Shown in pieces: positions 3,267 to 16,368 of a stretch of DNA of 32,000 nucleotides; within the stretch, counting starts at the first letter, position 1, and the number at the start of each line of letters is the position of its first letter. A model generated the notes under the pieces. It worked only from the letters and a program-made list of their open reading frames with translations. It searched no databases and had not been told where the DNA came from. Origin of the DNA: Nostoc sp. PCC 7120 = FACHB-418 (GTDB lineage: Bacteria; Cyanobacteriota; Cyanobacteriia; Cyanobacteriales; Nostocaceae); the NCBI RefSeq assembly GCF_000009705.1, contig NC_003276.1, positions 30,001-62,000 of the forward strand, written 5' to 3'. Made by a program: the position numbers and the translations under genes.

Positions 3267-3545
3267 TTAATCATCACTATCTTCTTCGCTCTCCTCCTGA
3301 GTTTCATCGAAGTTAACATCAAAACTTACGCCTAAAGCGGCTTCTATTCTTCTAAGTGTTGCCAGTGGAAGCGTTTTCATCTCTTCATTTTCAATCGCAT
3401 ACCAATTGGGAGTAGACATTCCAGCTAGAGCAGCTATTTCTTGCAGAGATCGTTTATCAATTTTTCTTGCGCGTCTAATTCTTTCTCCTAAACCAGGGAC
3501 TTCTTTACGAATCCGCTTTTCTACTTTCATCAAGCATGAACTCAC
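3267..3545 (-). CDS. XRE-family helix-turn-helix transcriptional regulator
   Basis: LGERIRRARKIDKRSLQEIAALAGMSTPNWYAIENEE...LATLRRIEAALGVSFD is a classic Cro/C1-type HTH. GTG start with GGAGG 7 nt upstream. Acidic C-terminal tail. Confidence 0.9.
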   Translation of the reverse strand: MSSCLMKVEKRIRKEVPGLGERIRRARKIDKRSLQEIAALAGMSTPNWYAIENEEMKTLPLATLRRIEAALGVSFDVNFDETQEESEEDSDD

Positions 3546-3579
3546 TAAACCACCTCCTTTATTTAAGCCTCGGTTTAGT

Positions 3580-3671
3580 CTTTATTTCTATAAAGTAACA
3601 CTTTATCTTCACTAAGTCTAGGTTATAAAAATAAAGTCTAACTTGACAAATGCTAAGTATGACTTTATATT
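3580..3671. promoter_or_regulatory. Divergent promoter/operator region with repeated ATAAAGT / ACTTTAT half-sites
   Basis: Palindrome ATAAAGTaacACTTTAT at 3590-3606. CTTTAT at 3580-3585. ATAAAGTC at 3631-3638 and GACTTTAT at 3661-3668 bracket a plus-strand TTGACA (3643-3648), 17-nt spacer and TATATT (3666-3671). Confidence 0.55.
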
Positions 3672-3677
3672 AATAGA

Positions 3678-3926
3678 TAAGGGATAAGGAACGCAAACCG
3701 CCTGCACCAGAACGCAATCAAGGGTTTGCAAACCAATCAAAGGAATACATATTTCTACCAACCAAAAACGGATAGCCACCGGGACAAGCAGCCGGGAGCC
3801 TAAAACTTGTAATGCTCAAGCCACCGGAGAGGATTCCGATGACCCGCCAAGTCTAAAAACTGGTATTGAATGCAAAAATCCCAGTAAATCAAAGCGATCG
3901 CTTGCTCCTAGTGGCGATCGCTTTTT
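3678..3926 (+). ncRNA. Candidate ~250-nt non-coding transcript (promoter at 3643-3671, intrinsic terminator at 3891-3926)
   Basis: No ORF longer than 14 codons lies between the promoter and the terminator. Ends are predicted from sequence only. Confidence 0.3.
3891..3926 (+). terminator. Rho-independent terminator built on two HIP1 sites
   Basis: AAAGCGATCGC (3891-3901) pairs with GCGATCGCTTT (3914-3924) across a 12-nt loop, followed by a T-run. Confidence 0.55.
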
Positions 3927-4122
3927 AAACAGAAACACATGGCTGCACAGAGGACAAATCCTCTCTACAGCCCTGCGCTGTTGCTTAAAAAAGTTTTATG
4001 AATGCTACGGGACGATCAACTATGCTCTTGCGTTACGCCATCTTTACGAAAGGCTGCACCAACGCAATTCATTGTGGTCGCCATCTCAATTACTGCTACT
4101 GCTTGTGACTAATTAAGAAACG

Positions 4123-4145
4123 GCTACGCCGAAGCGAGAGTGATG
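4123..4145 (+). repeat. Intergenic leader motif, copy 1 (short form)
   Basis: aaacgGCTACGCcgAAGCgagAGTGATG. Confidence 0.8.
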
Positions 4146-4171
4146 CGTTCTCCCCCACAACGTAGAAAAAC

Positions 4172-4213
4172 AAAGGCGATCGCTCTGGCTGAGAAACTTA
4201 GCGATCGCCCTTT
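4172..4213 (+). promoter_or_regulatory. HIP1-based hairpin between motif copy 1 and the 4234 start codon
   Basis: AAAGGCGATCGCT (4172-4184) pairs with AGCGATCGCCCTTT (4200-4213) with one bulge. There is no T-run. Confidence 0.45.
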
Positions 4214-4233
4214 ACTGAAATCAGGTCTATATT

Positions 4234-4722
4234 ATGTCATACGCAACAATAAACAAGCAAGCCCAAAGTCCGTTAACCGAGCAGGACAAACGAATCATCG
4301 CAAACATTATCCAACGCCATCCAGACGAAATCAAAACCATCTGGATAGACTGCGGAATCACGGTCTGGGTGCAACTCCAAGACGGTGGAAGACTACCCTT
4401 CGACAAAAATTGGTTCGCGCAAAGAGTGGCCCAAGAAAAGACTTCTCTAGATGCTCAAGAAAGCCTCCACAGGCACAACCAAAAATTAGAAACTGAATTA
4501 AATCAAGCCTGTTCTGAGTACGGTTTACAGCATGGCGAGATAGACTATTTGATGTTTTCAACGAAGGTTTATCGAGGTCGGGATTTAGTAGGATTCGTCG
4601 GGTTCAACAGATTCGGGAAGATGTGGAGTTATAGCCGCAGAGTGACAGAGCCTGATAAATACGCCCATAGTGCTGCTGATGCGCTCTCCAAGTTAGGCGT
4701 TAGGCAGTTAGCGACGGTGTAG
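4234..4722 (+). CDS. Hypothetical protein (162 aa)
   Basis: Balanced amino-acid composition. Preferred over the overlapping 118-aa ORF (4140-4496), which is extremely Arg/Lys/Pro-rich. Confidence 0.65.
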   Translation: MSYATINKQAQSPLTEQDKRIIANIIQRHPDEIKTIWIDCGITVWVQLQDGGRLPFDKNWFAQRVAQEKTSLDAQESLHRHNQKLETELNQACSEYGLQHGEIDYLMFSTKVYRGRDLVGFVGFNRFGKMWSYSRRVTEPDKYAHSAADALSKLGVRQLATV

Positions 4723-4730
4723 ATAAAAGT

Positions 4731-4762
4731 GCGATCGCTTGGGTTCTCTAACAAGCGATCGC
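4731..4762 (+). terminator. HIP1-based stem-loop downstream of the 162-aa gene
   Basis: GCGATCGCTTG (4731-4741) pairs with CAAGCGATCGC (4752-4762), an 11-bp perfect stem. The downstream U-tract is weak. Confidence 0.45.
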
Positions 4763-4839
4763 CTAAAATAATAGGTAAAGGCTATACAGTGCAGTAGTAA
4801 ACTAGCCACCGATTAACCGATTAATAGAAGGACTCAAAG

Positions 4840-5106
4840 ATGACCGAAGACAGCAGATTTGATGATATTTACCTGCGCCTCAATGAATTGACAGAGGATG
4901 TGACCAACCTGAAAATACAGGCAGGAACCATCGGTACATCTCAGGTAGCGATCGCGAGAACTTTGAGTTTAGCAACTGGATTGGCATCGGATATGCGAGA
5001 AGTCAAAGCAGAAATTCGTGACATGAAGGCTGATATTCGGAATTTGAACGCAGGGATGGAAGAAGTTTTAAGGCTATTGCGGCGTGGTAATAATTCTGAA
5101 GCATAG
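4840..5106 (+). CDS. Hypothetical coiled-coil protein (88 aa)
   Basis: Heptad-like charged repeats (REVKAEIRDMKADIRNLNAGMEEVLRLL). Confidence 0.6.
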   Translation: MTEDSRFDDIYLRLNELTEDVTNLKIQAGTIGTSQVAIARTLSLATGLASDMREVKAEIRDMKADIRNLNAGMEEVLRLLRRGNNSEA

Positions 5107-5122
5107 TTTAAGGTGATCAATA

Positions 5123-5419
5123 ATGATCAATGTTTGCCAAAAAATATTATGTCCGTACTTTGGGGAGAAAGGGCATAATTACGGTTGTCAGAGATATGCT
5201 TTGAGTAGTGGATGCCATCTGAAATTGATTACTCCGCTACAAGATAATGAGTACGTTTTATATACCGATGATGAGGAATTATTAGCATCATTTAAGGTAG
5301 AAAACGATAGGTTCTTTCAAGAAGATCCAAAATATGCAGAGGATTTGGAGTTCCAGCGAGAAAATCCAGAGTTATTTGCTGAACGTTCGTTTAAAGTCAG
5401 AGAAATTCAGACAAATTGA
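5123..5419 (+). CDS. Hypothetical protein with a Cys-rich N-terminus (98 aa)
   Basis: Four Cys (positions 5, 10, 22, 31) plus His in the first ~32 residues suggest a possible zinc-binding knuckle. AAGGTG RBS upstream. Confidence 0.55.
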   Translation: MINVCQKILCPYFGEKGHNYGCQRYALSSGCHLKLITPLQDNEYVLYTDDEELLASFKVENDRFFQEDPKYAEDLEFQRENPELFAERSFKVREIQTN

Positions 5420-5444
5420 TTTCGCTACTACACATAAAAATTAC

Positions 5445-5474
5445 AAGCGGTTTGTCCAGCACAGACCGCTTTTA
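5445..5474 (+). terminator. Rho-independent terminator
   Basis: AAGCGGTTTGT (5445-5455) pairs with ACAGACCGCTT (5461-5471) with one mismatch, followed by TTT. Confidence 0.6.
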
Positions 5475-5485
5475 TATTGGAGCGA

Positions 5486-5713
5486 ATGATAGAACAACCT
5501 CAAAACCAAAGATTATCTTAAGTACTAGCCGTAGATGGTATTTCTCAGCAACAAGCCCGTGCAAAATTAGCAGAAATATCTAGGCTATTAACTAAATTTC
5601 AACAAGTTTACTCCACAATTTATCAATATCTTTGCGCTAATGCAGAGGACGTAACTTTAGCTGATGCTATTCAAGCGGGGCTAACTAAAACGGCTACGCC
5701 AAAGCAGAAGTGA
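5486..5713 (+). pseudogene. Protein-like 75-codon reading frame interrupted by an in-frame TAA at 5519-5521
   Basis: MIEQPQNQRLS*VLAVDGISQQQARAKLAEISRLLTKFQQVYSTIYQYLCANAEDVTLADAIQAGLTKTATPKQK*. There is no ATG/GTG/TTG downstream of the TAA. The 3' end coincides with motif copy 2. Confidence 0.3.
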
Positions 5714-5715
5714 GA
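5693..5715 (+). repeat. Intergenic leader motif, copy 2 (short form)
   Basis: aaacgGCTACGCcaAAGCagaAGTGAGA. Confidence 0.8.
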
Positions 5716-5733
5716 CTCAAACCTCGTTATCTG

Positions 5734-5765
5734 ACAGGAGGGCGAAAAACTCTCCTGTTTTTTTT
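5734..5765 (+). terminator. Rho-independent terminator or attenuator
   Basis: ACAGGAG (5734-5740) pairs with CTCCTGT (5752-5758), followed by eight T. It sits 24 nt upstream of the ATG at 5789. Confidence 0.7.
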
Positions 5766-5788
5766 CAAGAATCAAACTATCAAAATAT

Positions 5789-5992
5789 ATGGCGAAAACT
5801 AAACAGATTCGGCAGGATTCAACGGCTGTATGTCTGCAATTCTTGCGGCGTTCTGGTGGCAAAGCAAGACTAAGTGAAATTAGCTTTAGCAGAAATACAG
5901 TTCAAAAACTGTTGAATCAGGGATTGGTCAAGGTACAGAGAACAGATATTGGTTACTACCTAGAATTAAAGGATGTAGAACTATGCAGTTAA
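5789..5992 (+). CDS. Small protein, possibly winged-helix DNA-binding (67 aa)
   Basis: LQFLRRSGGKARLSEISFSRNTVQKLLNQGLVKV has an HTH-plus-wing-like pattern. This is weak, by-eye evidence only. Confidence 0.5.
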   Translation: MAKTKQIRQDSTAVCLQFLRRSGGKARLSEISFSRNTVQKLLNQGLVKVQRTDIGYYLELKDVELCS

Positions 5993-6246
5993 ATCGAGTG
6001 TATGACAGTACTTTATTATCCTGTAAAAAGGTTTATCAAATTCAAGGTACATTGTACAAATATCTCTACAAAACAGGCACAATTCAGCATCCCAAGTACC
6101 ACTTTAGACCAATGCCAGGACAGCGTAAGAAAGCTGACTTATTGATTAATCACAAGACCTTAATTAATCGGTGTGAGGAAGTTGTAGGGATGCAAGTTAA
6201 CGCCACAGTAATTGATGAAAACGCGACGCAGATGAAGTTGTTTTAA
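5983..6246 (+). CDS. Hypothetical protein (87 aa)
   Basis: The start overlaps the upstream stop by 10 nt, which suggests translational coupling. Confidence 0.5.
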   Translation: MQLNRVYDSTLLSCKKVYQIQGTLYKYLYKTGTIQHPKYHFRPMPGQRKKADLLINHKTLINRCEEVVGMQVNATVIDENATQMKLF

Positions 6247-6250
6247 TAAT

Positions 6251-6439
6251 ATGAGCAAGTACAAACCCCGGATTATAAAACATCCTATCCGGTTGCAAAA
6301 AAATAACGCTCAAAAAATAATTTACCGGACAGTTAGAGATATTCAACAACTCAAAGATAGTTCCCCGATTGGTACAGCCACAATCAACAAACAATCAGTC
6401 ATGGTTCGGAAACAGGGGATGTATTGGGCTGTTGTTTAG
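6251..6439 (+). CDS. Hypothetical basic protein (62 aa)
   Basis: Begins 4 nt after the previous stop, on the same strand. Confidence 0.45.
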   Translation: MSKYKPRIIKHPIRLQKNNAQKIIYRTVRDIQQLKDSSPIGTATINKQSVMVRKQGMYWAVV

Positions 6440-6458
6440 TGAGTGAAATACTGTGAAA

Positions 6459-6488
6459 GCTACGCTTAAGCAAAGCGAAAAAATGAGG
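6459..6488 (+). repeat. Intergenic leader motif, copy 3 (long form)
   Basis: tgaaaGCTACGCttAAGCaaagcgaaaaAATGAGG. The GCTACGC core lies 39 nt upstream of the ATG at 6498. Confidence 0.75.
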
Positions 6489-6497
6489 TACTGAACA

Positions 6498-7559
6498 ATG
6501 GTACAAGCGATCGCTAACGAAACATTTCTAGCAGATGCAGTAGTTGAGCATTACAACTTTTCTAAGCTAAATAAAACTCGGATTCGGTTCAAAATTCAAC
6601 TCAAGAAAACCACTAAAAGCAATGCGCCGAAGTGGACTGATGTTTTGCAAGCGGATAACGAAGAAGAATCAGATTTACTCAAAGTTAAATCCTCGGAAGT
6701 TGGGTTGAAGGGCATCAAAGTCTTCAAAGCACTGGACGAAGCAGCAAGTCAATTGCGCTCTGAGATTGCATCGATTCAAGAGTGGATGAGTAACGACAAC
6801 GGGGATTGGATTTGTCCGATAGACCTCGCGCCCCTGGTGTGGAGTCAGTTGCTCAACATTAGAGATGTAGTTGCTCCTGATTTACGTGCTGGTTTAAAAA
6901 ATGAGTATGAAAAAGGTTTAGCTGATTACGTTGAGCGAATTGACAAATTCATCTCGTTAAATGTCTGGGATTTACCACCAGAAAAACGTGAGGAAGTTAA
7001 AGCGAACTTGCTCAAAGCTTTCCCATTACTGTCAGATTTGGAAGAATATCTGCAAGTAGTTATCGGTCGTCCGGTAATTATCCCGGCACTGTCTGAACAG
7101 TTGAACTCCGAGCAAGCCAAGTGCCTTCAACAGATAACCCAGTTCATTCAGCAGTACGACCAAAACCTAGAACAAAGGTTGAGGGAATCAGCGATCGCTG
7201 GAGGAGAACAACTAGCAGCCCAATTGCTAGATGAACTCGCCAACTGGGAACCAGGACGTAAGCCCGTGCTATTTAAGAAAAAGATGGATCAGCATCTTAA
7301 GCGGGTGCAGGTTTTATTGGCAAATGCCTCACCGGAGGCTGGAGCCAGTCTTGAGCAAATGATGAGTCACCTGGACTCAATCGTCAATGACCCAGGTATT
7401 ACCCAAAAGAACCTGGATTCACAAGGGCGATCTCAACTCCAGACGAAAATGGATACAATCTACTCCAAATTGTTGGACGAGCAACGCAATCTGCAACAGT
7501 TAGCAAGCAGCGATGTTGGGTTAACTCAAGCCACTGTTAAATCGTTTAAGTTCCGTTAG
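6498..7559 (+). CDS. Hypothetical protein (353 aa), possibly DUF3150-like
   Basis: Long clean ORF. Its general layout reminds me of the phage/plasmid DUF3150 family, which accompanies AAA ATPase and WGR genes in other mobile elements. This is unverified. Confidence 0.75.
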   Translation: MVQAIANETFLADAVVEHYNFSKLNKTRIRFKIQLKKTTKSNAPKWTDVLQADNEEESDLLKVKSSEVGLKGIKVFKALDEAASQLRSEIASIQEWMSNDNGDWICPIDLAPLVWSQLLNIRDVVAPDLRAGLKNEYEKGLADYVERIDKFISLNVWDLPPEKREEVKANLLKAFPLLSDLEEYLQVVIGRPVIIPALSEQLNSEQAKCLQQITQFIQQYDQNLEQRLRESAIAGGEQLAAQLLDELANWEPGRKPVLFKKKMDQHLKRVQVLLANASPEAGASLEQMMSHLDSIVNDPGITQKNLDSQGRSQLQTKMDTIYSKLLDEQRNLQQLASSDVGLTQATVKSFKFR

Positions 7560-7565
7560 AAAAAA

Positions 7566-7594
7566 GCGATGCCCTGAGAAATTCGGGGCATTGC
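7566..7594 (+). terminator. Stem-loop after the 353-aa gene
   Basis: GCgATGCCCtGAgaaaTCgGGGCATtGC is an imperfect stem with no clear T-run. Confidence 0.35.
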
Positions 7595-7621
7595 ACTAAT
7601 GCTAGTATTCCAGGTTTTATT

Positions 7622-8071
7622 ATGTCACATTTTACACAACTCAAAACTAAACTCACCAATCGTGATTGCTTAGTTCAAGCTCTAGAGGATTTGAAGCTTC
7701 AGCCCCATGTTTTTGAGCAACCGCAGCCGTTAGCTGGCTATTATATGGATTCGCAGGGGTACAGTGCAGAGATTATTATCTTCGGCAGGACAATCAAAGC
7801 CCGTGCAGACATTGGTTTTCGCTGGAATCAAAGCAGTGGTGTGTACGAGGTTATACACGATGAGTATGAAACATCTCCGCGACTTGGTGAAGATTTCTTC
7901 AGCCACAAGTTAATGCAGACTTACGGGCGGCGGATGGTTTTAGCCAAAACTGAAGAATTACGCGAAAAGTTTGGCGAATGCACGATTAGCGAAGAAACCA
8001 AAGGTCAAGTGCAAACCCTACGGTTGACTTTTGCAGGACATCAAGAAGTTAAACAATACGCCAGGAGATAA
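7622..8071 (+). CDS. DUF1257 (Ycf35-like) domain protein
   Basis: The N-terminus MSHFTQLKTKLTNRDCLVQALEDLKL matches the MSHF(T/S)xhKTxhxD...L..AL..LG opening characteristic of DUF1257, recalled from memory. Confidence 0.75.
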   Translation: MSHFTQLKTKLTNRDCLVQALEDLKLQPHVFEQPQPLAGYYMDSQGYSAEIIIFGRTIKARADIGFRWNQSSGVYEVIHDEYETSPRLGEDFFSHKLMQTYGRRMVLAKTEELREKFGECTISEETKGQVQTLRLTFAGHQEVKQYARR

Positions 8072-8074
8072 TCA

Positions 8075-8284
8075 ATGGAACGTTCTATACTGATACATTT
8101 CGATAACAAAACGGGTTCAGTGCGAGTAGAAGCTCTTGGGTTTGAGGGGTTGTCGTGTTTGGAAGCAACCCAGCCGTTTGAAGAAGCGTTAGGAGTTGTT
8201 GAGGGCGAACGAGAGTTTAAGCCCGAAGCGCAATCTCAGCAACTACGGACTAACAATAATCATCAGACTCGCTTGCGCCAGTAG
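8075..8284 (+). CDS. DUF2997 domain protein
   Basis: ILIHFDNKTGSVRVEALGFEGLSCLEATQPFEEALGVV fits the DUF2997 pattern (I.I..dG.v.iE..G..G.sC...T..lE.aLG). It starts 3 nt after the DUF1257 stop. Confidence 0.7.
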   Translation: MERSILIHFDNKTGSVRVEALGFEGLSCLEATQPFEEALGVVEGEREFKPEAQSQQLRTNNNHQTRLRQ

Positions 8285-8319
8285 TTAAGAAAAAGAGGGG
8301 TGAAAATCCCCTCAACATC

Positions 8320-8577
8320 ATGAACGAATTACCAAAAGAATACCCATTTATCCACGTTTATACACAGCAAAAAGCACATCAGCCGGTGATCATCAAAGGT
8401 AATACCGAAGGCTTATGTGTGCTTCTGAACGCCATAGTTACGGCAATTGCACACCGAGACTGTAACGGTGTAGCTGAAGTATTTGACGGCGATGCCGAAG
8501 TTTTTGAAGTGAGAGTTCAAATAGTTAAGACTCACTCTGAACTTGCACCACTACCGTATAAGGAATTACACCAATGA
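8320..8577 (+). CDS. Hypothetical protein (85 aa), translationally coupled to the AAA+ gene
   Basis: Its stop overlaps the ATPase ATG (ATGA at 8574-8577). It is preceded by the small hairpin GAGGGGtgaaaatCCCCTC. Confidence 0.55.
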   Translation: MNELPKEYPFIHVYTQQKAHQPVIIKGNTEGLCVLLNAIVTAIAHRDCNGVAEVFDGDAEVFEVRVQIVKTHSELAPLPYKELHQ

Positions 8578-10199
8578 ACCTAAATAATATATTCTCCACG
8601 CTGGATTCACAAATACCTATTGTGGCATTAGAAGTTCTCTCGCCAGAAGAAGCCACAATCATCCAGTGGTTAACAGCCAATGCACACGAGAAATTGAAAT
8701 CTGCGGTATTCTTCTGGAATCTGGGAGTATCGGGATTGGAACAGTGTGAGATTGCCTCTGATGGTGGGTTGGTATTTAAACCAGTACCAGAGTACAAAAA
8801 ACCACCCCACGCTGACCCGTTGTTGTACATTTTCGAGTACATTAACAATTTTGATGGTACAGGTGTATTTATCCTCAGTGATGTGCATCCATTTGTGGGC
8901 AAGAACTCGCCTCAACTGAGTTGGGAAATCCTCACACGGGTGAAGAACCTCTATCACCGACTCAAACCCACAGAAAAACGCATTATCTTCTTAGGTCAAA
9001 ATATCGAACTGCACGAGTCGCTAATTCGGCTGATTCCCTATGGTGAAGTGCCATTGCCAACCGTAGAACAAGTGCAAGAGCATATATATTCCTACCTCAA
9101 CTATTTGTCTGAATCTGCCATTGAACAAGACGTACTATTTCGTGTCCTGTTAAGTACTGAAGAAAGAGAAACTTTAGCACGGGCAGCTTTGGGATTAACT
9201 CTGGAGGAAATTAGTGATTTCTTGCGCTTGACTGTCAAAGAGCGTTTGAGTAGCAATGGTATTACTATTGATGCTACTGTTACGCCGATGGTAGTTGAGT
9301 ATAAAACTCGGCTACTCTCTCAAATGGGTATTGAGCTAGGTAAACCTGCACTCTACTCGTTCGGCGGACTTGATTTATTGCGTGAGTGGTTGAATCGGCG
9401 GCGCAAACTGTTCACGCAAGAAGCCAGAAACCTGCAACTGCCACAACCTAAAGGCATACTGCTGGCTGGCCCACCCGGAACGGGAAAAAGTCATTGTGCA
9501 AAGAATATTGCCAATATCCTCAATTTACCACTACTCAAGCTTGATATTGCTTCGATGCTTGGCTCTTTGGTAGGGGAGTCTGAGGGCAATGTCCGCCGCG
9601 CACTCAAGACAGCCGAAGCGATCGCACCCTGCGTTTTGTGGTTAGACGAGTTGGAAAAAGCCTTATCCGGGCAGGGTGATACAAGCGGTGTTTCCCAAAG
9701 AATACTCGGTACTGTCCTCACTTTCATGAGCGAATGTACTTCGGGGGTGTTTGTTGTCGCAACTTGCAATGACGTGACTGCACTCCCAACGGAACTCAAA
9801 CGCAAGGGTCGTTTCGATGAAACCTTCTTTGTAGATTTACCCTCAGAACCAGAGAGAGCGCAAATCCTCAAGATTCACCTGGAGCGATTCGGCATCAATG
9901 TAGAGTCAGAATACCTGGAAGCGATCGCCGCCAACACCTCTAAATTCTCTGGGGCGGAATTAGAAACTCTAGCATCTGAAGCCGCACTACTGGCATTCGA
10001 GCAAGAGCGACCCCAACAGGTGACTTTAGGAGACTTGGAAGAATGCCGTAAAACCATTACCCCACTTGCTGTCCAAGATGCGGCGGCGGTTGAGCGTATG
10101 AGGGAGTGGGCGAAAACTGCAAGGGCGGCATCAACGGCGATTGCGGATACAAAACCCACTCAGTCGATTAAAACTGCGCGGTATCGCAACATGAATTAA
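8574..10199 (+). CDS. AAA+ ATPase, Ycf46-like (N-terminal domain plus one classical AAA module)
   Basis: Walker A is GILLAGPPGTGKSHCAK and Walker B is VLWLDELEKAL. Sensor and arginine-finger region: ATCNDVTALPTELKRKGRFDETFFVDLP. The N-terminus (IPIVALEVLSPEEATIIQWL) resembles cyanobacterial/plastid Ycf46. Confidence 0.9.
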   Translation: MNLNNIFSTLDSQIPIVALEVLSPEEATIIQWLTANAHEKLKSAVFFWNLGVSGLEQCEIASDGGLVFKPVPEYKKPPHADPLLYIFEYINNFDGTGVFILSDVHPFVGKNSPQLSWEILTRVKNLYHRLKPTEKRIIFLGQNIELHESLIRLIPYGEVPLPTVEQVQEHIYSYLNYLSESAIEQDVLFRVLLSTEERETLARAALGLTLEEISDFLRLTVKERLSSNGITIDATVTPMVVEYKTRLLSQMGIELGKPALYSFGGLDLLREWLNRRRKLFTQEARNLQLPQPKGILLAGPPGTGKSHCAKNIANILNLPLLKLDIASMLGSLVGESEGNVRRALKTAEAIAPCVLWLDELEKALSGQGDTSGVSQRILGTVLTFMSECTSGVFVVATCNDVTALPTELKRKGRFDETFFVDLPSEPERAQILKIHLERFGINVESEYLEAIAANTSKFSGAELETLASEAALLAFEQERPQQVTLGDLEECRKTITPLAVQDAAAVERMREWAKTARAASTAIADTKPTQSIKTARYRNMN

Positions 10200-10203
10200 T
10201 AAC

Positions 10204-10242
10204 GAGAGCAATTGCTATTTTTAATAAGATAGCAATCGCTCT
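10204..10242 (+). terminator. Long stem-loop after the AAA+ gene
   Basis: GAGAGCAATTGCTAT (10204-10218) pairs with ATAGCAATCGCTCT (10229-10242). Confidence 0.45.
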
Positions 10243-10321
10243 GATTGCAAAATTCTGAACATCGCCTATAACTTAGAAGCAATTATTTCTTGTTTCAATA
10301 CAAAAATTCAGGAATAGGAAG

Positions 10322-10564
10322 ATGCCCCAAATGCCTGAATTTACCAAAGTGAACTCTCTTGAAACACCAACTGCTGTTTATTCAGTGGGGAAAATTATCA
10401 AGTTCTGGGATATAGGCGAACGAGCTTGGCTCAAAGGTAAGATTACGGCGATAACTCAGTGTGAAGGGTATTTTGTGAGCGCCACAGTTTCACACCAGAG
10501 CTTCAAAAAGAAGCGAGAAATCCAGATAAATCGGGAAGATTGGCTAGATACGAAAACTGAGTAA
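10322..10564 (+). CDS. Hypothetical protein (80 aa)
   Basis: ORF with an AGGAA-type RBS. VGKIIKFWDIGERAWLKGKITAI hints at a small beta-barrel (Tudor/SH3-like) fold. Speculative. Confidence 0.5.
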   Translation: MPQMPEFTKVNSLETPTAVYSVGKIIKFWDIGERAWLKGKITAITQCEGYFVSATVSHQSFKKKREIQINREDWLDTKTE

Positions 10565-10602
10565 TTTATCAATTGCTTCTGCTGTATTTAGGAAAAGTAA
10601 TT

Positions 10603-10625
10603 GCTACGCAAAAGCAAAAGTGATG
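10603..10625 (+). repeat. Intergenic leader motif, copy 4 (short form)
   Basis: taattGCTACGCaaAAGCaaaAGTGATG. The GCTACGC core lies 40 nt upstream of the GTG at 10643. Confidence 0.8.
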
Positions 10626-10642
10626 ATTAGAGGATTAATCTT

Positions 10643-11188
10643 GTGGAAATATATTTAGTTTTTGTTGATGCTGCCAGTAACAGCAATAAGTTTTGGACAG
10701 CTAAAGTTGAACAAAATCAGCTAACTGTCCAATGGGATCGAGTGGGGTACAAAGCCCAAACGAAAGTTCATCAATTCACAAGTCAAGCGCAAGCTGCAAA
10801 TAAATATAATAATCTAGTTTTTGAAAAGAAGGCTAAAGGCTACCAAGAGAGTCAGCCCCAGATAGAATCATGTGGTGTTGTGGATATAAGGAGAGCAATG
10901 CAACTATTAAATGGTTTACGCTCTTACGTAACTAATAGAAATTTCAATGCTGATTACATTAACCTATTGAATCAATATTTAAAAATCATTCCTACACCTT
11001 TAGGAATGCAGCTAGAGCCTTATAGGATTTTCACAAGTGTTGCAGATGTAGACCATCAACGCGAACTGCTCAGTTCTCTAATTCCTGCAACTCCTGTAGC
11101 TGTAACTCAGGCTAAACAAATGCCAGAATCACAAGAGAAGATTGTTAGCCTCAGAGGTATTCACAAAAATCTTTGGCGGCATTTCTAG
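10643..11188 (+). CDS. WGR-domain protein with a PARP-helical-domain-like C-terminal half and no ADP-ribosyltransferase domain
   Basis: SNKFWTAKVEQNQLTVQWDRVGYKAQTKVHQFTSQAQAANKYNNLVFEKKAKGY matches WGR (sNKFY...WGRiG...f.s..eA...f..l...K..KGY), with WDRVG in place of WGRIG. The C-terminus LLNQYLKIIPTPLGMQLEPYRIFTSVADVDHQRELLSSL aligns by eye with human PARP1 [37 protein letters not shown], recalled from memory. GTG start with an AGAGGA RBS. Confidence 0.75.
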   Translation: MEIYLVFVDAASNSNKFWTAKVEQNQLTVQWDRVGYKAQTKVHQFTSQAQAANKYNNLVFEKKAKGYQESQPQIESCGVVDIRRAMQLLNGLRSYVTNRNFNADYINLLNQYLKIIPTPLGMQLEPYRIFTSVADVDHQRELLSSLIPATPVAVTQAKQMPESQEKIVSLRGIHKNLWRHF

Positions 11189-11202
11189 AGGCTACTATTA
11201 AA

Positions 11203-11236
11203 CCCAAAGTGATACTAAATCAGTAACCACTTTGGG
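11203..11236 (+). terminator. Stem-loop after the WGR gene
   Basis: CCCAAAGTG (11203-11211) pairs with CACTTTGGG (11228-11236), a perfect 9-bp stem. An AT-rich 240-bp spacer follows. Confidence 0.5.
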
Positions 11237-11457
11237 CAATCGATTCAACTACAAAATCATTGTGGCACAAATATCATCTTGTTGTGTGCATGACTTCTAA
11301 ATATTAACTAAATATTCACAAACATAAAAGTTGGTAATGGTTTCATTTTAGTTGCTAAAGAGTTATTTTTAAATTATGACAAAGCTTAATCAAGCAAGTA
11401 TTATAATAGTTGATATAAACTTTCTATAAATGACGTTATAGCCACAAATAATAAACA

Positions 11458-11486
11458 GCTACGCTAAAGAAAAACGATAATGAATG
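11458..11486 (+). repeat. Intergenic leader motif, copy 5 (long form, most diverged)
   Basis: aaacaGCTACGCtaAAGAaaaacgatAATGAATGG. The GCTACGC core lies 41 nt upstream of the second in-frame ATG (11499). Confidence 0.65.
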
Positions 11487-12389
11487 GGAGAAAAGCTCAT
11501 GGTAAATGAAGTGAAGTTAGGATTAGGTAATCCACCACATCCTATTTACTTGTATGTCAAAAATGAAGAAATGGGCGGTGAACAGTATGTCTGGTATAAA
11601 TACATTATTAATAGTAAAGAAAAAATCCCTGTCCACCAGAGAGCTTTGACTGGATATATTTGTGAACTCAGGCTCAGAGAGAAAGACTATAAAGGTCAAG
11701 ACAACCTTAAGCTAGATATTGTGATTTCGGCAGACGAACTTTATGTAATTAGAAGCGGCATCAATACCAATTTTGCCAAATCATTTTTACTCGCTGCATC
11801 CGTAGTAGAAGATTTTTCAAAACCTTTAACAATTGTGGTTAATCCTGGTAATGAAACTGTTGTCTTTTGCAGCCTTTATGATGCTCAGTCTAAGACTAAG
11901 ATTCGTAGAGATTGGGATGCTAAGGCTGATTTTGCCGGCATAATTCAAGATATACAATCAAGGTTGTCTTTTGCTATCAAATATGAAATTGATGATGAGG
12001 ATATTTTCGGCTTAGAACAACTAAGTACAGTCAAACTGCACTCAAATTCTGTCCCAAAATCAAAAGCCATTGCTCCGCCAGTACATCCACAAGATACACG
12101 AGTTAGACAAATCCGCACACTGTTGGACTATCCTGTTGACTTGATTAAAGAGTGGCTCCAGTTTCAGGATGCGAAAGCGCCAAGTCAGCTTCCACAAGCA
12201 TCTATTGACGAACTGGTAAAAACCATGTGTTTGGCTTGGGCGGCTCCTAAAGCTGACCCTTACCGTGCTGAAACTACTTATCAGCAGCAGGTATTGGAGG
12301 CGATCGCCAATGGCACTGATGAAGTTACTGCTATCAGGGAATGGATGAACTATGTTGTAGGGCAAAGGGCGGCTGTGGCTGCACGGTAA
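11484..12389 (+). CDS. Hypothetical protein (301 aa; the alternative start at 11499 has the better RBS, GGGAGA)
   Basis: Long clean ORF followed by a strong terminator. No motif I can name. Confidence 0.75.
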   Translation: MGEKLMVNEVKLGLGNPPHPIYLYVKNEEMGGEQYVWYKYIINSKEKIPVHQRALTGYICELRLREKDYKGQDNLKLDIVISADELYVIRSGINTNFAKSFLLAASVVEDFSKPLTIVVNPGNETVVFCSLYDAQSKTKIRRDWDAKADFAGIIQDIQSRLSFAIKYEIDDEDIFGLEQLSTVKLHSNSVPKSKAIAPPVHPQDTRVRQIRTLLDYPVDLIKEWLQFQDAKAPSQLPQASIDELVKTMCLAWAAPKADPYRAETTYQQQVLEAIANGTDEVTAIREWMNYVVGQRAAVAAR

Positions 12390-14748: not shown

Positions 14749-15315
14749 TTACCTAACACCTAATTTAGAAGAACGCCATAGCCCATATTCAAAATAAACT
14801 AAGTCGTCATAATCTTCGTCTTCTCCCAAGTCAACCATACCTTGGTTATCGTAGAATTTTTCTACTCCAGGCAGAGAGTGTAATCCTACTCTACCCTCAA
14901 AACCCAGTTCCAGGCTACGGGTTCTAGCAAAAGCTAACAGTGCAGTACCGACTCCTTTATATTTGGGTGGGCGTTGTATTATTTCTCGGTTCCAAGGCGC
15001 AGATGCAATACCATCAACATAGACCAGTCGCCTCCCTGGCACTAACCGTGACCCGTGCATTTGCGTTTCAATAAGCAACAAGCCTTGGGTTTCATCTTCG
15101 TACTCGATAGCGTAGCCTTCCCGGTTTGGTTGTTTATTAATTACGAACTCCAGTTTAAATTCCCAGTCCCAAAATTTGTCTTCTTGAGTGAATAATCTTA
15201 ATTGTTCTTTCCACGTACAGTTGTAGTCATGAGCGTGTTTAGTTTGCAATTCAACTAAATCGGCTTCCACAACTACATTATCCTGAGTACGAATTAGTCT
15301 AACCGTGCTTTGCAT
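14749..15315 (-). CDS. GNAT-fold acetyltransferase-like protein (188 aa)
   Basis: VYVDGIASAPWNR...KYKGVGTALLAFARTRSLELGFEGRVGLHSLPGVEKFYDNQGM has the GNAT beta4-alpha3 acetyl-CoA loop (xxGVGxA) and a C-terminal FY motif. Confidence 0.6.
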   Translation of the reverse strand: MQSTVRLIRTQDNVVVEADLVELQTKHAHDYNCTWKEQLRLFTQEDKFWDWEFKLEFVINKQPNREGYAIEYEDETQGLLLIETQMHGSRLVPGRRLVYVDGIASAPWNREIIQRPPKYKGVGTALLAFARTRSLELGFEGRVGLHSLPGVEKFYDNQGMVDLGEDEDYDDLVYFEYGLWRSSKLGVR

Positions 15316-16026: not shown

Positions 16027-16368
16027 ATGGTACGAGGATTAGAAAACAAGTTCAATCATCAAGAAGAAGTTTTTCACATAGAAGATGAACAAAAGCCAAA
16101 GAATCAGATTGAGGAAATTGCAGTTAGAGCAGTTAAATTAGCTGGGTTATCAGTAAGACTTGGTGATTATGAGTTTGTCTCTACATCGGTTAGATTGCTT
16201 GAGCCATTTATCAAAGCTTGGTACGCAAAAGCAGGAATTGAACCACCATCGACGGCGACAATATCTCGTTGGTTTTATGATTCGCCGCCAAAGTGGGCAA
16301 TCGCTTTATTAGTGAACGAAAAAGAAAAAATTTTTGAAAAAGTAGCGCGGAAATGCAAAATTCCGTAA
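16027..16368 (+). CDS. Hypothetical protein (113 aa)
   Basis: Strong RBS (TAGGAGGG, 7 nt upstream) and a terminator downstream. Confidence 0.6.
   Translation: MVRGLENKFNHQEEVFHIEDEQKPKNQIEEIAVRAVKLAGLSVRLGDYEFVSTSVRLLEPFIKAWYAKAGIEPPSTATISRWFYDSPPKWAIALLVNEKEKIFEKVARKCKIP

Follow-up and report, generated by a model that had tools for sequence, protein, structure and literature searches.

In the early promoters of phage N4, inverted repeats flank a GC-rich heptamer with a sheared G:A pair, a run of A serves as the ruler, and position +1 is conserved (PMC4496689). Mini-hairpin DNA, of which two forms have been published, GCGNAGC and GCGNNAGC, has been found in the promoter of N4 mini-vRNAP and where primases start; mini-hairpin sequences are also present in the G4/St-1 oric and in ssiA (PMC13037366). 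The Frpo elements of conjugative plasmids are located upstream of uniformly oriented early genes (PMC11541004). The G4 oric, RSF1010 ssiA and the F plasmid Frpo resemble the motif considered here in being hairpins of one strand; on single-stranded DNA, RNA synthesis begins at them.

The stoperators of mycobacteriophage L5 are asymmetric protein-binding sites in duplex DNA, co-oriented with transcription, and the kor operators of IncP plasmids are palindromes found plasmid-wide at sigma-70 promoters. The PeSLs of T4-type phages are mobile cassettes with a sigma-70 early promoter and a terminator stem-loop. The RfaH ops element is itself a mini-hairpin of the GNNA type.

The window, a stretch of 32,000 nt, belongs to the alpha plasmid of Nostoc/Anabaena sp. 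PCC 7120. The motif serves a module, conserved on Nostocales plasmids, of plus-strand genes of unknown function (4234..12389 on the ORF map), encoding proteins of 162, 88, 98, 67, 87, 62 and 353 aa, followed by DUF1257, DUF2997, an 85-aa protein, an AAA ATPase, an 80-aa protein, a WGR protein and a 296-aa protein. The module head carries, all on the plus strand, a near-consensus sigma-70 promoter (TTGACA-17-TATATT, 3643-3671), a conserved non-coding stretch of about 250 nt within 3643..3926, and an intrinsic terminator at about 3886-3926. The region 3643..3926 has no match in Rfam. A divergent XRE-type helix-turn-helix (HTH) gene (3267..3545, minus strand) is a candidate regulator only; HTH genes also stand beside the copy-1-type motif in the relatives L001–L004 and in a second module of plasmid A of Trichormus variabilis. 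The motif ties these plus-strand genes together, and the comparisons below support this.

The sequence GCTACGCNNAAG occurs exactly five times in the window (4123, 5693, 6459, 10603 and 11458), always on the plus strand and, by the window ORF map, always between genes. The preliminary description held this to be non-random, and rightly so: the chance expectation is 0.06, none of 100 shuffles reached five copies, and the two-block pattern with 10/11-nt spacing, seen in all five copies, is expected 0.08 times. The corrected consensus is a rigid unit of two blocks: an A/T-rich lead-in, N-GC-[T-W-C]-GC-N', a spacer of 10 or 11 nt and (G)[T/C]GA(A/G)A. The second block, similar to GTGAAA, thus comes one helical turn after the first. 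In 145 of 204 non-redundant cores TGA is at offset 17/18. The AAGC extension of the first proposed consensus (GCTACGC-NN-AAGC) is conserved in the closest relatives only. The ATGA boxes of copies 3 and 5 had been taken for a conserved element, wrongly, because it is box 2 that keeps the fixed 10/11-nt spacing in 5/5 copies (TGA at 4141, 5711 and 10621, CGA at 6476 and 11475). Nor is there conservation of the mini-ORFs said to open at the ATGA boxes of copies 3-5: C takes the first position of the box in 10% of sites, and the frames that follow are not the same from site to site. On the minus strand, where no full copy had been seen, GCTACGC does occur at 15116 and 21682, but both sites are coding and lack the second box. 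The partial copy noted near 16223 (GGTACGC... at 16220) indeed lies inside an ORF but has neither hairpin nor second box, and is most likely due to chance.

The positions flanking the first block, -1 and +8, form the pairs GC (37), AU (29), CG (7), UA (4) and GU (2) among 107 sites; they share 0.92 bit of mutual information, and a covariation score as high as that observed arose in 0 of 500 shuffles. Covariation through four pair types identifies block 1 as a mini-hairpin. The lineage-wide hairpin variants GCTTACGC, several sites each in L011, L019 and L021, imply a co-evolving reader. The complement of block 1 is GCGWAGC, or GCGTAAGC in one lineage. Intergenic GC-NNN-GC heptamers with template-strand loops GAA, GTA and GCA number 173, 88 and 26, versus 9, 10 and 8 in the opposite orientation. 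With 3-4 bp, the stems have marginal thermodynamic stability (z about 0), and their extrusion from duplex DNA is unlikely.

Copy 1 (4114..4146, plus strand) lies between the XRE gene and 4234 and has orthologues in 46 non-redundant lineages. It is formed by the A/T-rich lead-in, the mini-hairpin g-GC-TAC-GC-c (4122-4130), a purine-rich spacer of 11 nt and box 2, GTGATG (4140-4145). Its leader (4146..4213, plus strand) keeps a degenerate trace of hairpin 1 (CGTT 4146-4149 / AACG 4159-4162), which has 8-9 bp in relatives; it also holds an A-rich run, hairpin 2 (GGCGATCGCT...AGCGATCGCC, 4175-4209) and a short T run. Covarying stems and loops of variable length (2 to 6 nt) show this to be a hairpin of nucleic acid, not a dimer operator.

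Copy 2 (5684..5716, plus strand; between 5419 and 5789) has the hairpin g-GC-TAC-GC-c (5692-5700), an 11-nt spacer and GTGAGA (5710-5715). It is followed after 22 nt by a strong intrinsic terminator (5733..5767, plus strand; 10-pair stem plus T8), which is kept in L001–L005 and ends 22 nt ahead of the ATG at 5789. The hairpin and the terminator reported after copies 1 and 2 hence exist, and the attenuator-like layout of these copies is real.

Copies 3, 4 and 5, all on the plus strand, stand 39, 40 and 41 nt ahead of start codons, as had been claimed. Copy 3 (6450..6481; between 6439 and 6498) consists of a-GC-TAC-GC-t (6458-6466), a 10-nt spacer and GCGAAA (6475-6480), and precedes the 353-aa gene, whose homologues carry the same site upstream in about 78 of 80 loci. 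Copy 4 (10594..10626; between 10564 and 10643), with t-GC-TAC-GC-a (10602-10610), an 11-nt spacer and GTGATG (10620-10625), precedes the WGR-domain gene. It is degenerate in L003, where extra genes are inserted. Copy 5 (11449..11480; between 11188 and 11499), with a-GC-TAC-GC-t (11457-11465), a 10-nt spacer and ACGATA (11474-11479), precedes the 296-aa gene (ATG at 11499) and is matched by orthologues in both L001 and L005.

In 84 related Nostocales loci, matches to the strict pattern are sense to the genes in 235 cases and antisense in six, a strand bias of about 39-fold, and the intergenic excess of sense over antisense is roughly 14-fold; as related sites are not independent, these statistics are inflated. 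The motif is found mostly 35-50 nt ahead of start codons. Among the intergenic cores, 244 of 261 have a plus-strand gene next, and 136 of these 244 are at 35-50 nt from its start codon; the distance to the preceding stop codon is broad. In operon-like gaps the motif can be found 1-4 nt past such a stop codon. Two-block copies on the other strand were seen only in an inverted module copy. The motif precedes 69 of 83 genes of the 353-aa family, 40 of 49 of the first-gene family and 28 of 37 of the 11484/11499-12389 family. Hence the motif exceeds background, its bias is real and orthologous sites keep it, the opposite of what the preliminary description named as refuting it. On the complete plasmid A of Trichormus variabilis (366 kb) it is restricted to the orthologous module, the head of a paralogous module and one further gene. 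It is thus module-limited, and the plasmid-wide regulon proposed earlier does not hold. Rfam gives no matching family, in agreement with the earlier statement that no motif of this form had been described. The motif is real and conserved and matches no described family.

The motif borders cassettes, conserved or shuffled, on their 5' side. At the head of the module, one and the same conserved motif-plus-leader stands behind four or more unrelated upstream sequences, the junction falling about 6 nt ahead of the hairpin. At copy 2 the synteny breakpoints against five relatives (5679/5686) are 7-14 nt upstream. Intergenic gaps with an intrinsic terminator contain the motif in 42 of 85 cases, those without in 116 of 508 (Fisher p = 1e-6); 43 terminator-containing gaps have no motif. 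Where both are present, the terminator comes ahead of the motif in 39 gaps and after it in three. At the 4.3-kb strawberry-notch gene of plasmid A, 24 nt separate a strong terminator from the motif.

It is most likely that the motif marks the start point of expression of each gene cassette. How it would do so is less certain. We tentatively favour, at a probability of about 0.4, a hairpin-type, promoter-like initiation signal on the template strand, distinct from sigma-70 promoters. Block 1, a GC mini-hairpin of 3-4 bp reading GCG-N-A-GC on the template strand, or GCG-NN-A-GC in one lineage, would adopt the sheared G:A "mini-hairpin DNA" fold; the purine-rich spacer of fixed length (10/11 nt) would serve as a ruler; and block 2, (A)GTGA(A/G)A, would lie at or beside the start point. 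Transcripts would start about 20-35 nt ahead of the start codon, or, at the module head, about 100 nt ahead of it and continue into a structured leader. Starting in or just ahead of box 2 is consistent with the conserved leader hairpin, which begins 5-6 nt past box 2, and with the close Shine-Dalgarno sequence, as near as 9 nt. Indels place the Shine-Dalgarno sequence nearer to or farther from box 2, and fixed spacing within the element combined with a variable leader is a promoter-type pattern. Hairpin and box would be read jointly by a factor co-evolving with the plasmid lineage, possibly a dedicated polymerase, a primase-like enzyme or a specificity factor. Action at the DNA level, initiation at the motif and the identity of the reader protein are what we infer here. 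The element fits no sigma-70 -10/-35 element and no conserved mini-ORF; between -45 and +45, TAnnnT is not concentrated at any position, and immediately upstream of the motif it is depleted; a generic promoter scan yields only the background level.

The template strand of block 1 corresponds to both published mini-hairpin consensus forms, with a chance probability of about 1 in 100 by our estimate; the match is suggestive but not proof. The promoters of the N4 virion RNA polymerase are similar in having a template-strand GC-rich heptamer with a 3-nt G-N-A loop, covarying flanking inverted repeats, an A-rich ruler of fixed length and a conserved start-point base, all in a compact element with nothing conserved upstream. 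However, the stem is 3-4 bp here and 5-7 bp in N4, and the second box is 14-16 nt from the loop centre rather than 11 nt. Further, the host is a cellular plasmid and not a phage, with no hit in IMG/VR, and no N4-like or T7-like polymerase was found. No polymerase, sigma-like or NusG-like factor was recognised among the module or window proteins, and we know of no use of such signals by the host RNA polymerase. Initiation at the motif is also countered by the terminator-like hairpins between motif and gene in two of the five window copies, an arrangement no less suited to a leader or attenuator than to a promoter. Moreover, sigma-70 promoters are situated 450 nt upstream of copy 1 (the near-consensus one) and near copy 5 (upstream at 11376-11404 and overlapping at 11452-11481), so that the motif could merely be transcribed within a leader.

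An element acting at the RNA level, transcribed from upstream promoters as N-GC-UWC-GC-N' with U/G 10-11 nt on, is accordingly a possible reading, if a doubtful one. It could be an operator for a module-encoded RNA-binding regulator, antiterminator or translational. Alternatively, it could be a hairpin-dependent pause signal, since the distance of 10-11 nt between the hairpin base and the U-G step is that of class I pauses. The covariation and the lineage-wide variants of the hairpin would fit, as would the RNA-type hairpins or terminators conserved after copies 1 and 2 ahead of the gene, the sigma-70 promoters just mentioned, the sites 1-4 nt past stop codons and the lack of recognisable promoter elements in the motif. 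Lambda nut boxB, the LoaP hairpin and RfaH ops likewise combine a small hairpin with an adjacent conserved sequence in sense-strand operon leaders, sometimes upstream of terminators, as in copies 1 and 2. However, the G-N-A loop is here on the template and not the non-template strand, and a hairpin 10-11 nt from the T-G step would sit outside the transcription bubble, unlike in antitermination sites. The motif is mostly past terminators (the 39:3 order), and no N-, Q- or NusG-like or RNA-binding protein was found among the module and window proteins. The leader of the 353-aa gene has no larger conserved RNA structure or pairing partner, and the RNA mini-hairpin is unstable by itself. No rationale in RNA is known for the invariant T and C of the loop, which on the opposite strand become G and A. 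Finally, the variable Shine-Dalgarno distance speaks against a classical translational operator.

It is rather improbable that the motif is an asymmetric duplex-DNA operator, intergenic and in one orientation, for a regulator of the module, for instance the neighbouring XRE or CopG/RHH protein. The multiple intergenic copies, asymmetric and co-oriented with transcription, the HTH genes beside the copy-1-type site in every close relative and in the second plasmid A module, and the restriction to the module, resembling a local regulon, would agree with it. The closest parallel, beside a kor-like regulon, is provided by the L5 stoperators: both these and the IncP kor sites are short and occur in many copies in the intergenic gaps of a mobile element. 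They show no hairpin covariation, in contrast to the two-block, hairpin-containing, module-limited motif, and the palindromic kor-like operator proposed earlier is a misfit with this asymmetric element and the covariation in its first block. A protein reading the duplex would not be expected to leave -1/+8 as G..C or A..T and almost never G..T or A..C. The block centres, about 15-16 bp apart, face opposite sides of the helix. The XRE gene varies in orientation and family between plasmids while the motif is constant, and the plasmid A strawberry-notch site has no HTH gene nearby.

Still less probable are single-strand priming signals, with a Toprim-type primase recognising the template-strand mini-hairpins at times when that strand is unpaired, as in strand-displacement replication or following conjugal entry; G4 oric and RSF1010 ssiA would be the parallels. 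The enzyme could be the adjacent CyRepA1 replication protein, which has a Toprim-related DUF3854 domain and a helicase domain (PMC10079941), or the DUF3854 protein of the transfer region. Primase start sites do contain mini-hairpin DNA (PMC13037366), in L002 and L003 the module has CyRepA1 beside it, typing places the plasmids among the conjugative ones, and the copies are all on one strand. However, priming leaves the anchoring at 35-50 nt from start codons and the conserved leaders that begin with the motif unexplained, and in the inverted module copy the motif tracks gene orientation. Known ssi sites are at origins, one per strand and one or two per origin, unlike the 4-8 motif copies per gene block, and the plasmid A module is not beside the relaxase genes but about 100 kb from these and the T4SS genes. 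Frpo, in turn, has long hairpins mimicking -35/-10 boxes, none of which are seen here.

The cassette junction suggested earlier is supported in part, in that synteny breaks down 7-14 nt upstream of the motif. Site-specific recombination, however, would demand a single fixed nucleotide, and the breakpoints are at -6, -7, -14 and about -55 nt. The PeSLs are similar as repeated short regulatory units flanking small unknown ORFs at points of modular shuffling, and differ in that the motif has no sigma-70 promoter or terminator stem-loop of its own. HUH nick sites consist of a hairpin, about 10 nt and a conserved tetranucleotide, much as here. Nevertheless, exchange of cassettes by a site-specific or HUH-type recombinase is highly improbable: synteny breakpoints and gene gain or loss do coincide with motif positions, and cassette order varies between plasmids, but neither an integrase nor an HUH enzyme was seen among the module proteins, the conserved start-codon distance points to expression, and homology between repeated regulatory cassettes would equally give shuffling.

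The pattern GCTACGCNNAAG is found five times in the 32-kb window, at positions 4123, 5693, 6459, 10603 and 11458 (copies 1–5), with 0.06 occurrences expected. All copies are on the plus strand and each lies between ORFs, as claimed in the preliminary description. The proteins encoded in the window match, with full identity, those of a 408-kb plasmid contig of Nostoc/Anabaena sp. PCC 7120, which identifies the window as part of the alpha plasmid. The conserved unit consists of an A/T-rich lead-in, a first block N-GC-[T-W-C]-GC-N' and, after 10 or 11 spacer nucleotides, a second box, (A)G-[T/C]-G-A-(A/G)-A. Counting from the GC-NNN-GC heptamer, A occupies position -3 in 79% of sites, and of 204 non-redundant cores, 145 have TGA at offset 17 or 18. 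The two-block pattern is held by all five window copies, against 0.08 expected. No description of such a motif was found in the Rfam or literature searches, in agreement with the initial impression.

The consensus has to be redrawn in several places. The AAGC included in it at first is kept in the nearest relatives only, and pairing of GCT with AGC through this tetramer is rejected, since it is not conserved beyond the PCC 7120 clade. The ATGA taken for the second box of copies 3 and 5 is replaced by CGA, at 6476 and 11475, respectively. The mini-ORFs thought to open at ATGA do not hold either: 10% of sites have CGA in box 2, the directly adjoining purine run leaves no Shine-Dalgarno spacing, and the frames are not conserved. 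A leader peptide is rejected on the same grounds. Finally, the partial copy GGTACGCAAAAGC (16220–16241, plus strand), listed previously, lies inside ORF 16027–16368, cannot form the GC hairpin and has no correctly spaced box 2; most likely, it is a chance match.

The comparison set was formed by four plasmids about 80% identical to the window (L001–L004) and 80 further loci, picked via homologues of the 353-aa gene (6498–7559, the anchor gene) without reference to the motif. The bases flanking the heptamer covary, being paired in 137 of 165 sites with 93 expected, at mutual information of 0.92 bit. In the alignment of 107 sequences this pair is GC in 37 cases, AU in 29, CG in 7, UA in 4 and GU in 2; the covariation score is reached by none of 500 shuffles and slid controls score lower, although the sites share descent and are not independent, so that the p-values and shuffle tests given here overstate significance. 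Switches between G..C and A..T are seen even within orthologous sites. The stem has two invariant GC pairs, one covarying pair and, in 45% of sites, a fourth pair. In two loci, L008 and L018, the heptamer is replaced by a small GC hairpin CCGC-AAW-GCGG, and in the Fischerella/Pelatocladus loci by GCTTACGC, at several sites per locus. Because the flanking bases covary and some lineages swap in other GC hairpins, block 1 is best described as a mini-hairpin, the reader of which appears to co-evolve with the plasmid lineage. The isolated mini-hairpin is thermodynamically marginal, with folding z-scores about zero, and the wobble-pair asymmetry does not discriminate which of the two strands folds. 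Tandem (AATTGCG)n heptamers, typical cyanobacterial STRR-like repeats, abut the motif upstream of the anchor gene in several Nostoc loci (L013, L020, L030, L043).

In 1.28 Mb of related sequence from 84 loci, with genes called as crude greedy ORFs, the strict pattern occurs 235 times in the sense of the gene and 6 times antisense, and it is present in 81 of the loci. For the core heptamer in intergenic regions, the numbers are 261 and 19. The antisense two-block copies are found only in an inverted second copy of the module, ahead of minus-strand genes. The minus-strand matches at +2 to +4 kb from the anchor gene were discounted, as there the loosened pattern hits the coding sequence of the AAA ATPase. 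The copies cluster between -6 and +7 kb around the anchor gene, with four to eight gene-anchored copies per module. Of the 83 members of the 353-aa family, 69 are preceded by the motif. The same holds for 40 of 49 first genes of the module, for 28 of 37 members of the family to which the 296-aa gene of the window belongs, and for 20 of 67 AAA ATPase genes; the DUF5895 family is among the others preceded by it.

The complete 366-kb plasmid of Trichormus variabilis (plasmid A) has eight matches, with 2.65 expected. The orthologous module accounts for four; another, of the module-head type, precedes a second, paralogous small-gene module beside a divergent HTH gene; one precedes the strawberry-notch (sno) gene; and two are probably due to chance. 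Hence the motif is module-specific rather than plasmid-wide, and the plasmid-wide regulon of the kor kind suggested earlier is not seen; moreover, the element is asymmetric and consists of two blocks. The copies at the paralogous module and at the sno gene are located on the minus strand of plasmid A (NC_007410.1), at 93969 and 124648. One of them, with the leader hairpin, stands at the head of the second small-gene block, which includes DUF1392 and is next to the divergent HTH gene; the other is situated 24 nt past a strong terminator and about 46 nt ahead of the strawberry-notch helicase-like gene. A gene for an RpoD-family sigma factor lies 1.4 kb from the second of these copies.

The large Nostocales plasmids are almost unexplored with respect to regulation, and the motif delimits something like a regulon in them: about a dozen gene families without known function, present in more than 80 replicons of at least eight genera. 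The 30-nt signal could be used in reporter fusions, as a bait for the reader protein and as a probe for further members of the module. Under any mechanism, it would provide cyanobacterial synthetic biology with a compact, orthogonal part for expression or regulation.

The module itself is absent from the IMG/VR viral contigs, and its phage origin is rejected for lack of a match there. In relatives it is repeatedly broken by mobile elements (12.3–15.6 kb in L003, 14183–15511 in L001, 13490–14800 in L004), namely a group II intron within the 353-aa gene, IS701 transposases and a TnpB gene.

The position of the motif is set by the downstream gene. The distance to the start codon is 35–50 nt in 136 of 244 copies, with a second mode at 100–150 nt formed by the module-head type, while the distance from the preceding stop codon is broad. 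The spacing between the hairpin and box 2 is rigid, the distance from box 2 to the Shine-Dalgarno sequence varies through indels, and Shine-Dalgarno sequences come as near as 9 nt to box 2. Conservation starts at the motif: the shared motif and leader of the module head are preceded by upstream sequences of at least four unrelated kinds, with the junction about 6 nt before the hairpin. Between the window and five relatives, synteny is lost near copies 1, 4 and 5 and, at copy 2, 7–14 nt ahead of the motif. All breakpoints taken together are at -6, -7, -14 and about -55 nt. According to a simple terminator finder, 42 of 85 intergenic gaps with an intrinsic terminator contain the motif, compared to 116 of 508 gaps without one (p = 1e-6, the sites not being independent), and in 39 of these 42 cases the terminator comes first.

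The module-head leader is conserved as well. It contains a hairpin that begins 5–6 nt after box 2, followed farther on by an A-rich run and a long HIP1-based stem-loop. Since the stems of the hairpin covary and its loop varies from 2 to 6 nt, we take it to be a nucleic-acid structure, not a dimer operator. Copy 2 has a strong terminator 22 nt downstream, which ends 22 nt before the next ATG; copies 1 and 2 are the only ones in the window that precede terminators. Pairing at long range between the motif and the CGTAG that follows hairpin 1 is rejected, as it shows no covariation, and no larger conserved RNA fold is predicted around copy 3.

Ordinary promoters of the sigma-70 type (groups 1 and 2) were sought as a TAnnnT -10 element some 7 nt ahead of the start, alone or combined with a TTGACA -35 element 17 bp upstream. 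Neither TAnnnT nor TTGnnn has a positional peak between -45 and +45 of 198 sites, and the generic promoter scan stays at the background level. The two blocks are rejected as -35 and -10 elements, as no register leaves both the leader hairpin and the Shine-Dalgarno sequence within the transcript; an extended -10 or a sigma-28-like -10 at box 2 is rejected too, because it would put the start within the leader hairpin or beyond the Shine-Dalgarno sequence.

Our preferred, still tentative, reading of these sequence data, at a rough probability of 0.4, is that the motif may be a compact promoter-like initiation signal of the hairpin type. The hairpin and box 2 would be recognised jointly by the reader, and RNA would begin in, or just ahead of, box 2. 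This reading is preferred because it alone fits together the two-block architecture, the boundary of conservation at the 5' side, the order of terminator and motif, the absence of any canonical promoter, the leader hairpin and the proximity of Shine-Dalgarno sequences. It has serious weaknesses, however: the stems are too short for extrusion from duplex DNA, two of the five copies lead directly into terminator-like hairpins, and scans of the module and the window yielded no candidate reader enzyme.

The main rival, somewhat unlikely but ahead of the other alternatives, is an RNA-level leader element, which would serve either as an operator for a regulator that binds RNA or as a pause site dependent on the hairpin; the latter is suggested because the hairpin base is 10–11 nt from a U-G step. 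The leader terminators after copies 1 and 2 and the sigma-70 promoters upstream of copies 1 and 5 agree with it, whereas the order of terminator and motif speaks against it, and the conservation of the loop is left unexplained. Rfam has no match in the window at the gathering threshold, and none relevant at E <= 5–10 over 3560–11700. The nut, ops and LoaP sites reside in the transcribed leader upstream of suppressed terminators and act with an N-, Q- or NusG-like factor. A site of this type is rejected: terminators come before the motif at 39:3, and no KOW, NGN or N-like domain was found. Were the motif an ordinary leader operator, its value would be smaller yet real, that of a new cis-regulatory motif with an already mapped regulon. 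The hunt for transcript-derived contigs gave eight contigs in a metagenome scan, all ordinary DNA, and two short Logan contigs that begin 172 and 408 nt upstream of the gene.

A further clue comes from the template strand. The invariant loop bases are T and C only, hence A and G on the template strand, where the heptamer reads GCG-N-AGC (reverse complement GCGWAGC) and its lineage variant GCG-TA-AGC. Mini-hairpin DNA, which is unusually stable and has two G-C pairs and a sheared G:A pair, has two consensus forms, GCGNAGC and GCGNNAGC; reported occurrences are the primase start sites of phages G4, St-1 and alpha3, RSF1010 ssiA and the promoter of the N4 mini-vRNAP (PMC13037366). The template-strand readings of the motif and of the lineage variant match exactly both consensus forms, which could be a coincidence, with odds estimated at roughly 1 in 100. 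Among all intergenic GC-NNN-GC heptamers of the sample, over-representation and orientation bias are both strongest for the loops GAA, GTA and GCA on the template strand, with 173, 88 and 26 occurrences, versus 9, 10 and 8 in the other orientation.

In the early promoters of phage N4, a GC-rich heptamer is set within inverted repeats, the non-conserved bases of which need only pair, and there are a sheared G:A pair in the loop, an A-run serving as a ruler and a conserved +1 (PMC4496689). The motif likewise has a 3-nt G-N-A loop on the template strand, closed by C-G, in a GC-rich heptamer, and matches the anatomy of the vRNAP promoters except for the lengths of the stem and the ruler. The N4 stem, of 5–7 bp, is extrudable from supercoiled DNA, but that of the motif is shorter; further, the N4 promoters are served by a cognate single-subunit polymerase of the T7 type, with transcription starting 11 nt from the loop centre. 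No polymerase domain was recognised in the scanned ORFs of the window, many of which have no recognisable fold, or in the PDB searches.

It is conceivable, if unlikely, that the copies act from the template strand, as GNA mini-hairpins serving as promoters or initiation signals whenever this strand is single-stranded, which would be the case just after conjugal entry or during strand-displacement replication. Each cassette of such an "establishment" module would then be expressed immediately, and perhaps priming would occur at it. The Frpo ssDNA promoter is a long hairpin that recreates duplex -35 and -10 elements in the leading region beside oriT. The motif is not of this kind, as it has no -35 and -10 boxes, and the module of plasmid A is about 100 kb from the relaxase and T4SS genes. 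An active template-strand mini-hairpin would be the first counterpart of the N4 hairpin promoter on a cellular plasmid and would give the mini-hairpin fold a biological role beyond a few phage and origin examples. If the single-stranded promoter reading is true, a system of hairpin promoters would for the first time be known from outside phage N4, and the problem solved by Frpo in enterobacterial plasmids would have a second, unrelated answer; a polymerase, primase or specificity factor would also have to be present, so far unrecognised, among the module proteins of unknown function.

That the neighbouring XRE or RHH proteins use the motif as an operator in duplex DNA seems improbable. Stoperator-type sites are bound by the repressor of their own element and are asymmetric, intergenic and in one orientation to transcription. 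The motif resembles them in asymmetry, intergenic position and single orientation, but its covariation is not expected of stoperators and does not fit a duplex operator. KorA/KorB-type operators, being palindromic duplex sites at promoters spread across the replicon, are rejected given an asymmetric two-block element that is not spread over plasmid A.

A primase ssi site is quite improbable. In G4 oric and RSF1010 ssiA, the hairpin is situated at the origin, one per strand, and has a cognate primase. A mini-hairpin is present here too, and the gene of the Toprim-related Rep protein CyRepA1 is adjacent in relatives; however, there are four to eight gene-anchored copies per module, and the proximity to start codons is unaccounted for. 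A recombination site is very improbable, as the breakpoints are not at a single nucleotide, and an integron attC (an imperfect inverted repeat of 57–141 nt at the cassette 3' end, with a fixed exchange nucleotide and an integrase nearby) is rejected for an element of about 30 nt at the 5' end, with scattered breakpoints and no integrase in the scanned ORFs. In sum, the motif would work like hairpin promoters, ssi signals and regulon operators, yet does not show the full set of defining features of any of them.

The search for a trans-acting factor covered the module proteins (Pfam, PHROGs, PADLOC) and, in PDB, the profile of the 353-aa family and a 606-aa window ORF outside the module. It returned only DUF1257, DUF2997, AAA, WGR and DUF5895 and gave no lead to the reader. 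No polymerase, sigma-like, NusG-like, integrase or RNA-binding domain was recognised among the module proteins, almost all of which are of unknown function. The all-helical 353-aa protein (6498–7559, plus strand) has weak profile matches to Vps4 MIT, the H-NS coiled coil and the Rad23 XPC-binding domain (E 0.003–0.05), and one database labels a homologue CdvB/Snf7/ESCRT-III. Three genes downstream, after DUF1257, DUF2997 and an 85-aa ORF, a classic AAA+ ATPase is encoded (8574–10199, plus strand). This may be a very weak hint at an ESCRT-III/Vps4-like pair.

The region upstream of copy 2 (window 5420–5690) is a degenerate remnant that retains a terminator (5445–5471) and about 250 nt of homology. 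At the equivalent place, L001, L003 and L005 have several extra genes, one of them with a further motif copy (at 9080 in L001 and 9639 in L003). If copy 2 is a promoter, it would yield an RNA of about 50 nt (5711–5767, plus strand), in which a conserved single-stranded segment ACUCAAACCUCGUUAUC precedes the terminator hairpin. ACUCAAACCUCGUUAUC includes an anti-Shine-Dalgarno-like CCUC, and the shape of the putative RNA is that of a usual trans-acting sRNA. It is not among the published sRNA predictions for the alpha plasmid, which exclude starts within 200 nt of a gene.

Another feature of the module head is a stretch of about 250 nt that comes after a near-consensus sigma-70 promoter, TTGACA-17-TATATT, and ends in an intrinsic terminator (3643–3926, plus strand). 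It contains no ORF of 40 aa or longer, the terminator stem covaries, and the identity to L002 and L003 is about 90–95%, compared to about 80% in the neighbouring genes. A core of about 110 nt (AGCCACCGGGA...GAGATGATTCCGATGACC...GTCTAAAAACTGG) hardly varies between the 13 or more loci that have it, and in many Nostoc this core is situated about 180 nt upstream of the module-head motif. The stretch has no Rfam match. We list it as a candidate for a non-coding RNA or leader missing from the annotation; a leader for processive antitermination, a riboswitch-like leader and an sRNA are among the options, as is a DNA element, for instance an origin. Between its terminator and copy 1, at 3941–3985 on the plus strand, there is a conserved hairpin CTGCACAGAGGA-loop-TCCTCTCTACAG and then a small ACAGC..GCTGT hairpin. 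The loop of the former is 4 nt in the window and about 22 nt in many Nostoc lineages.
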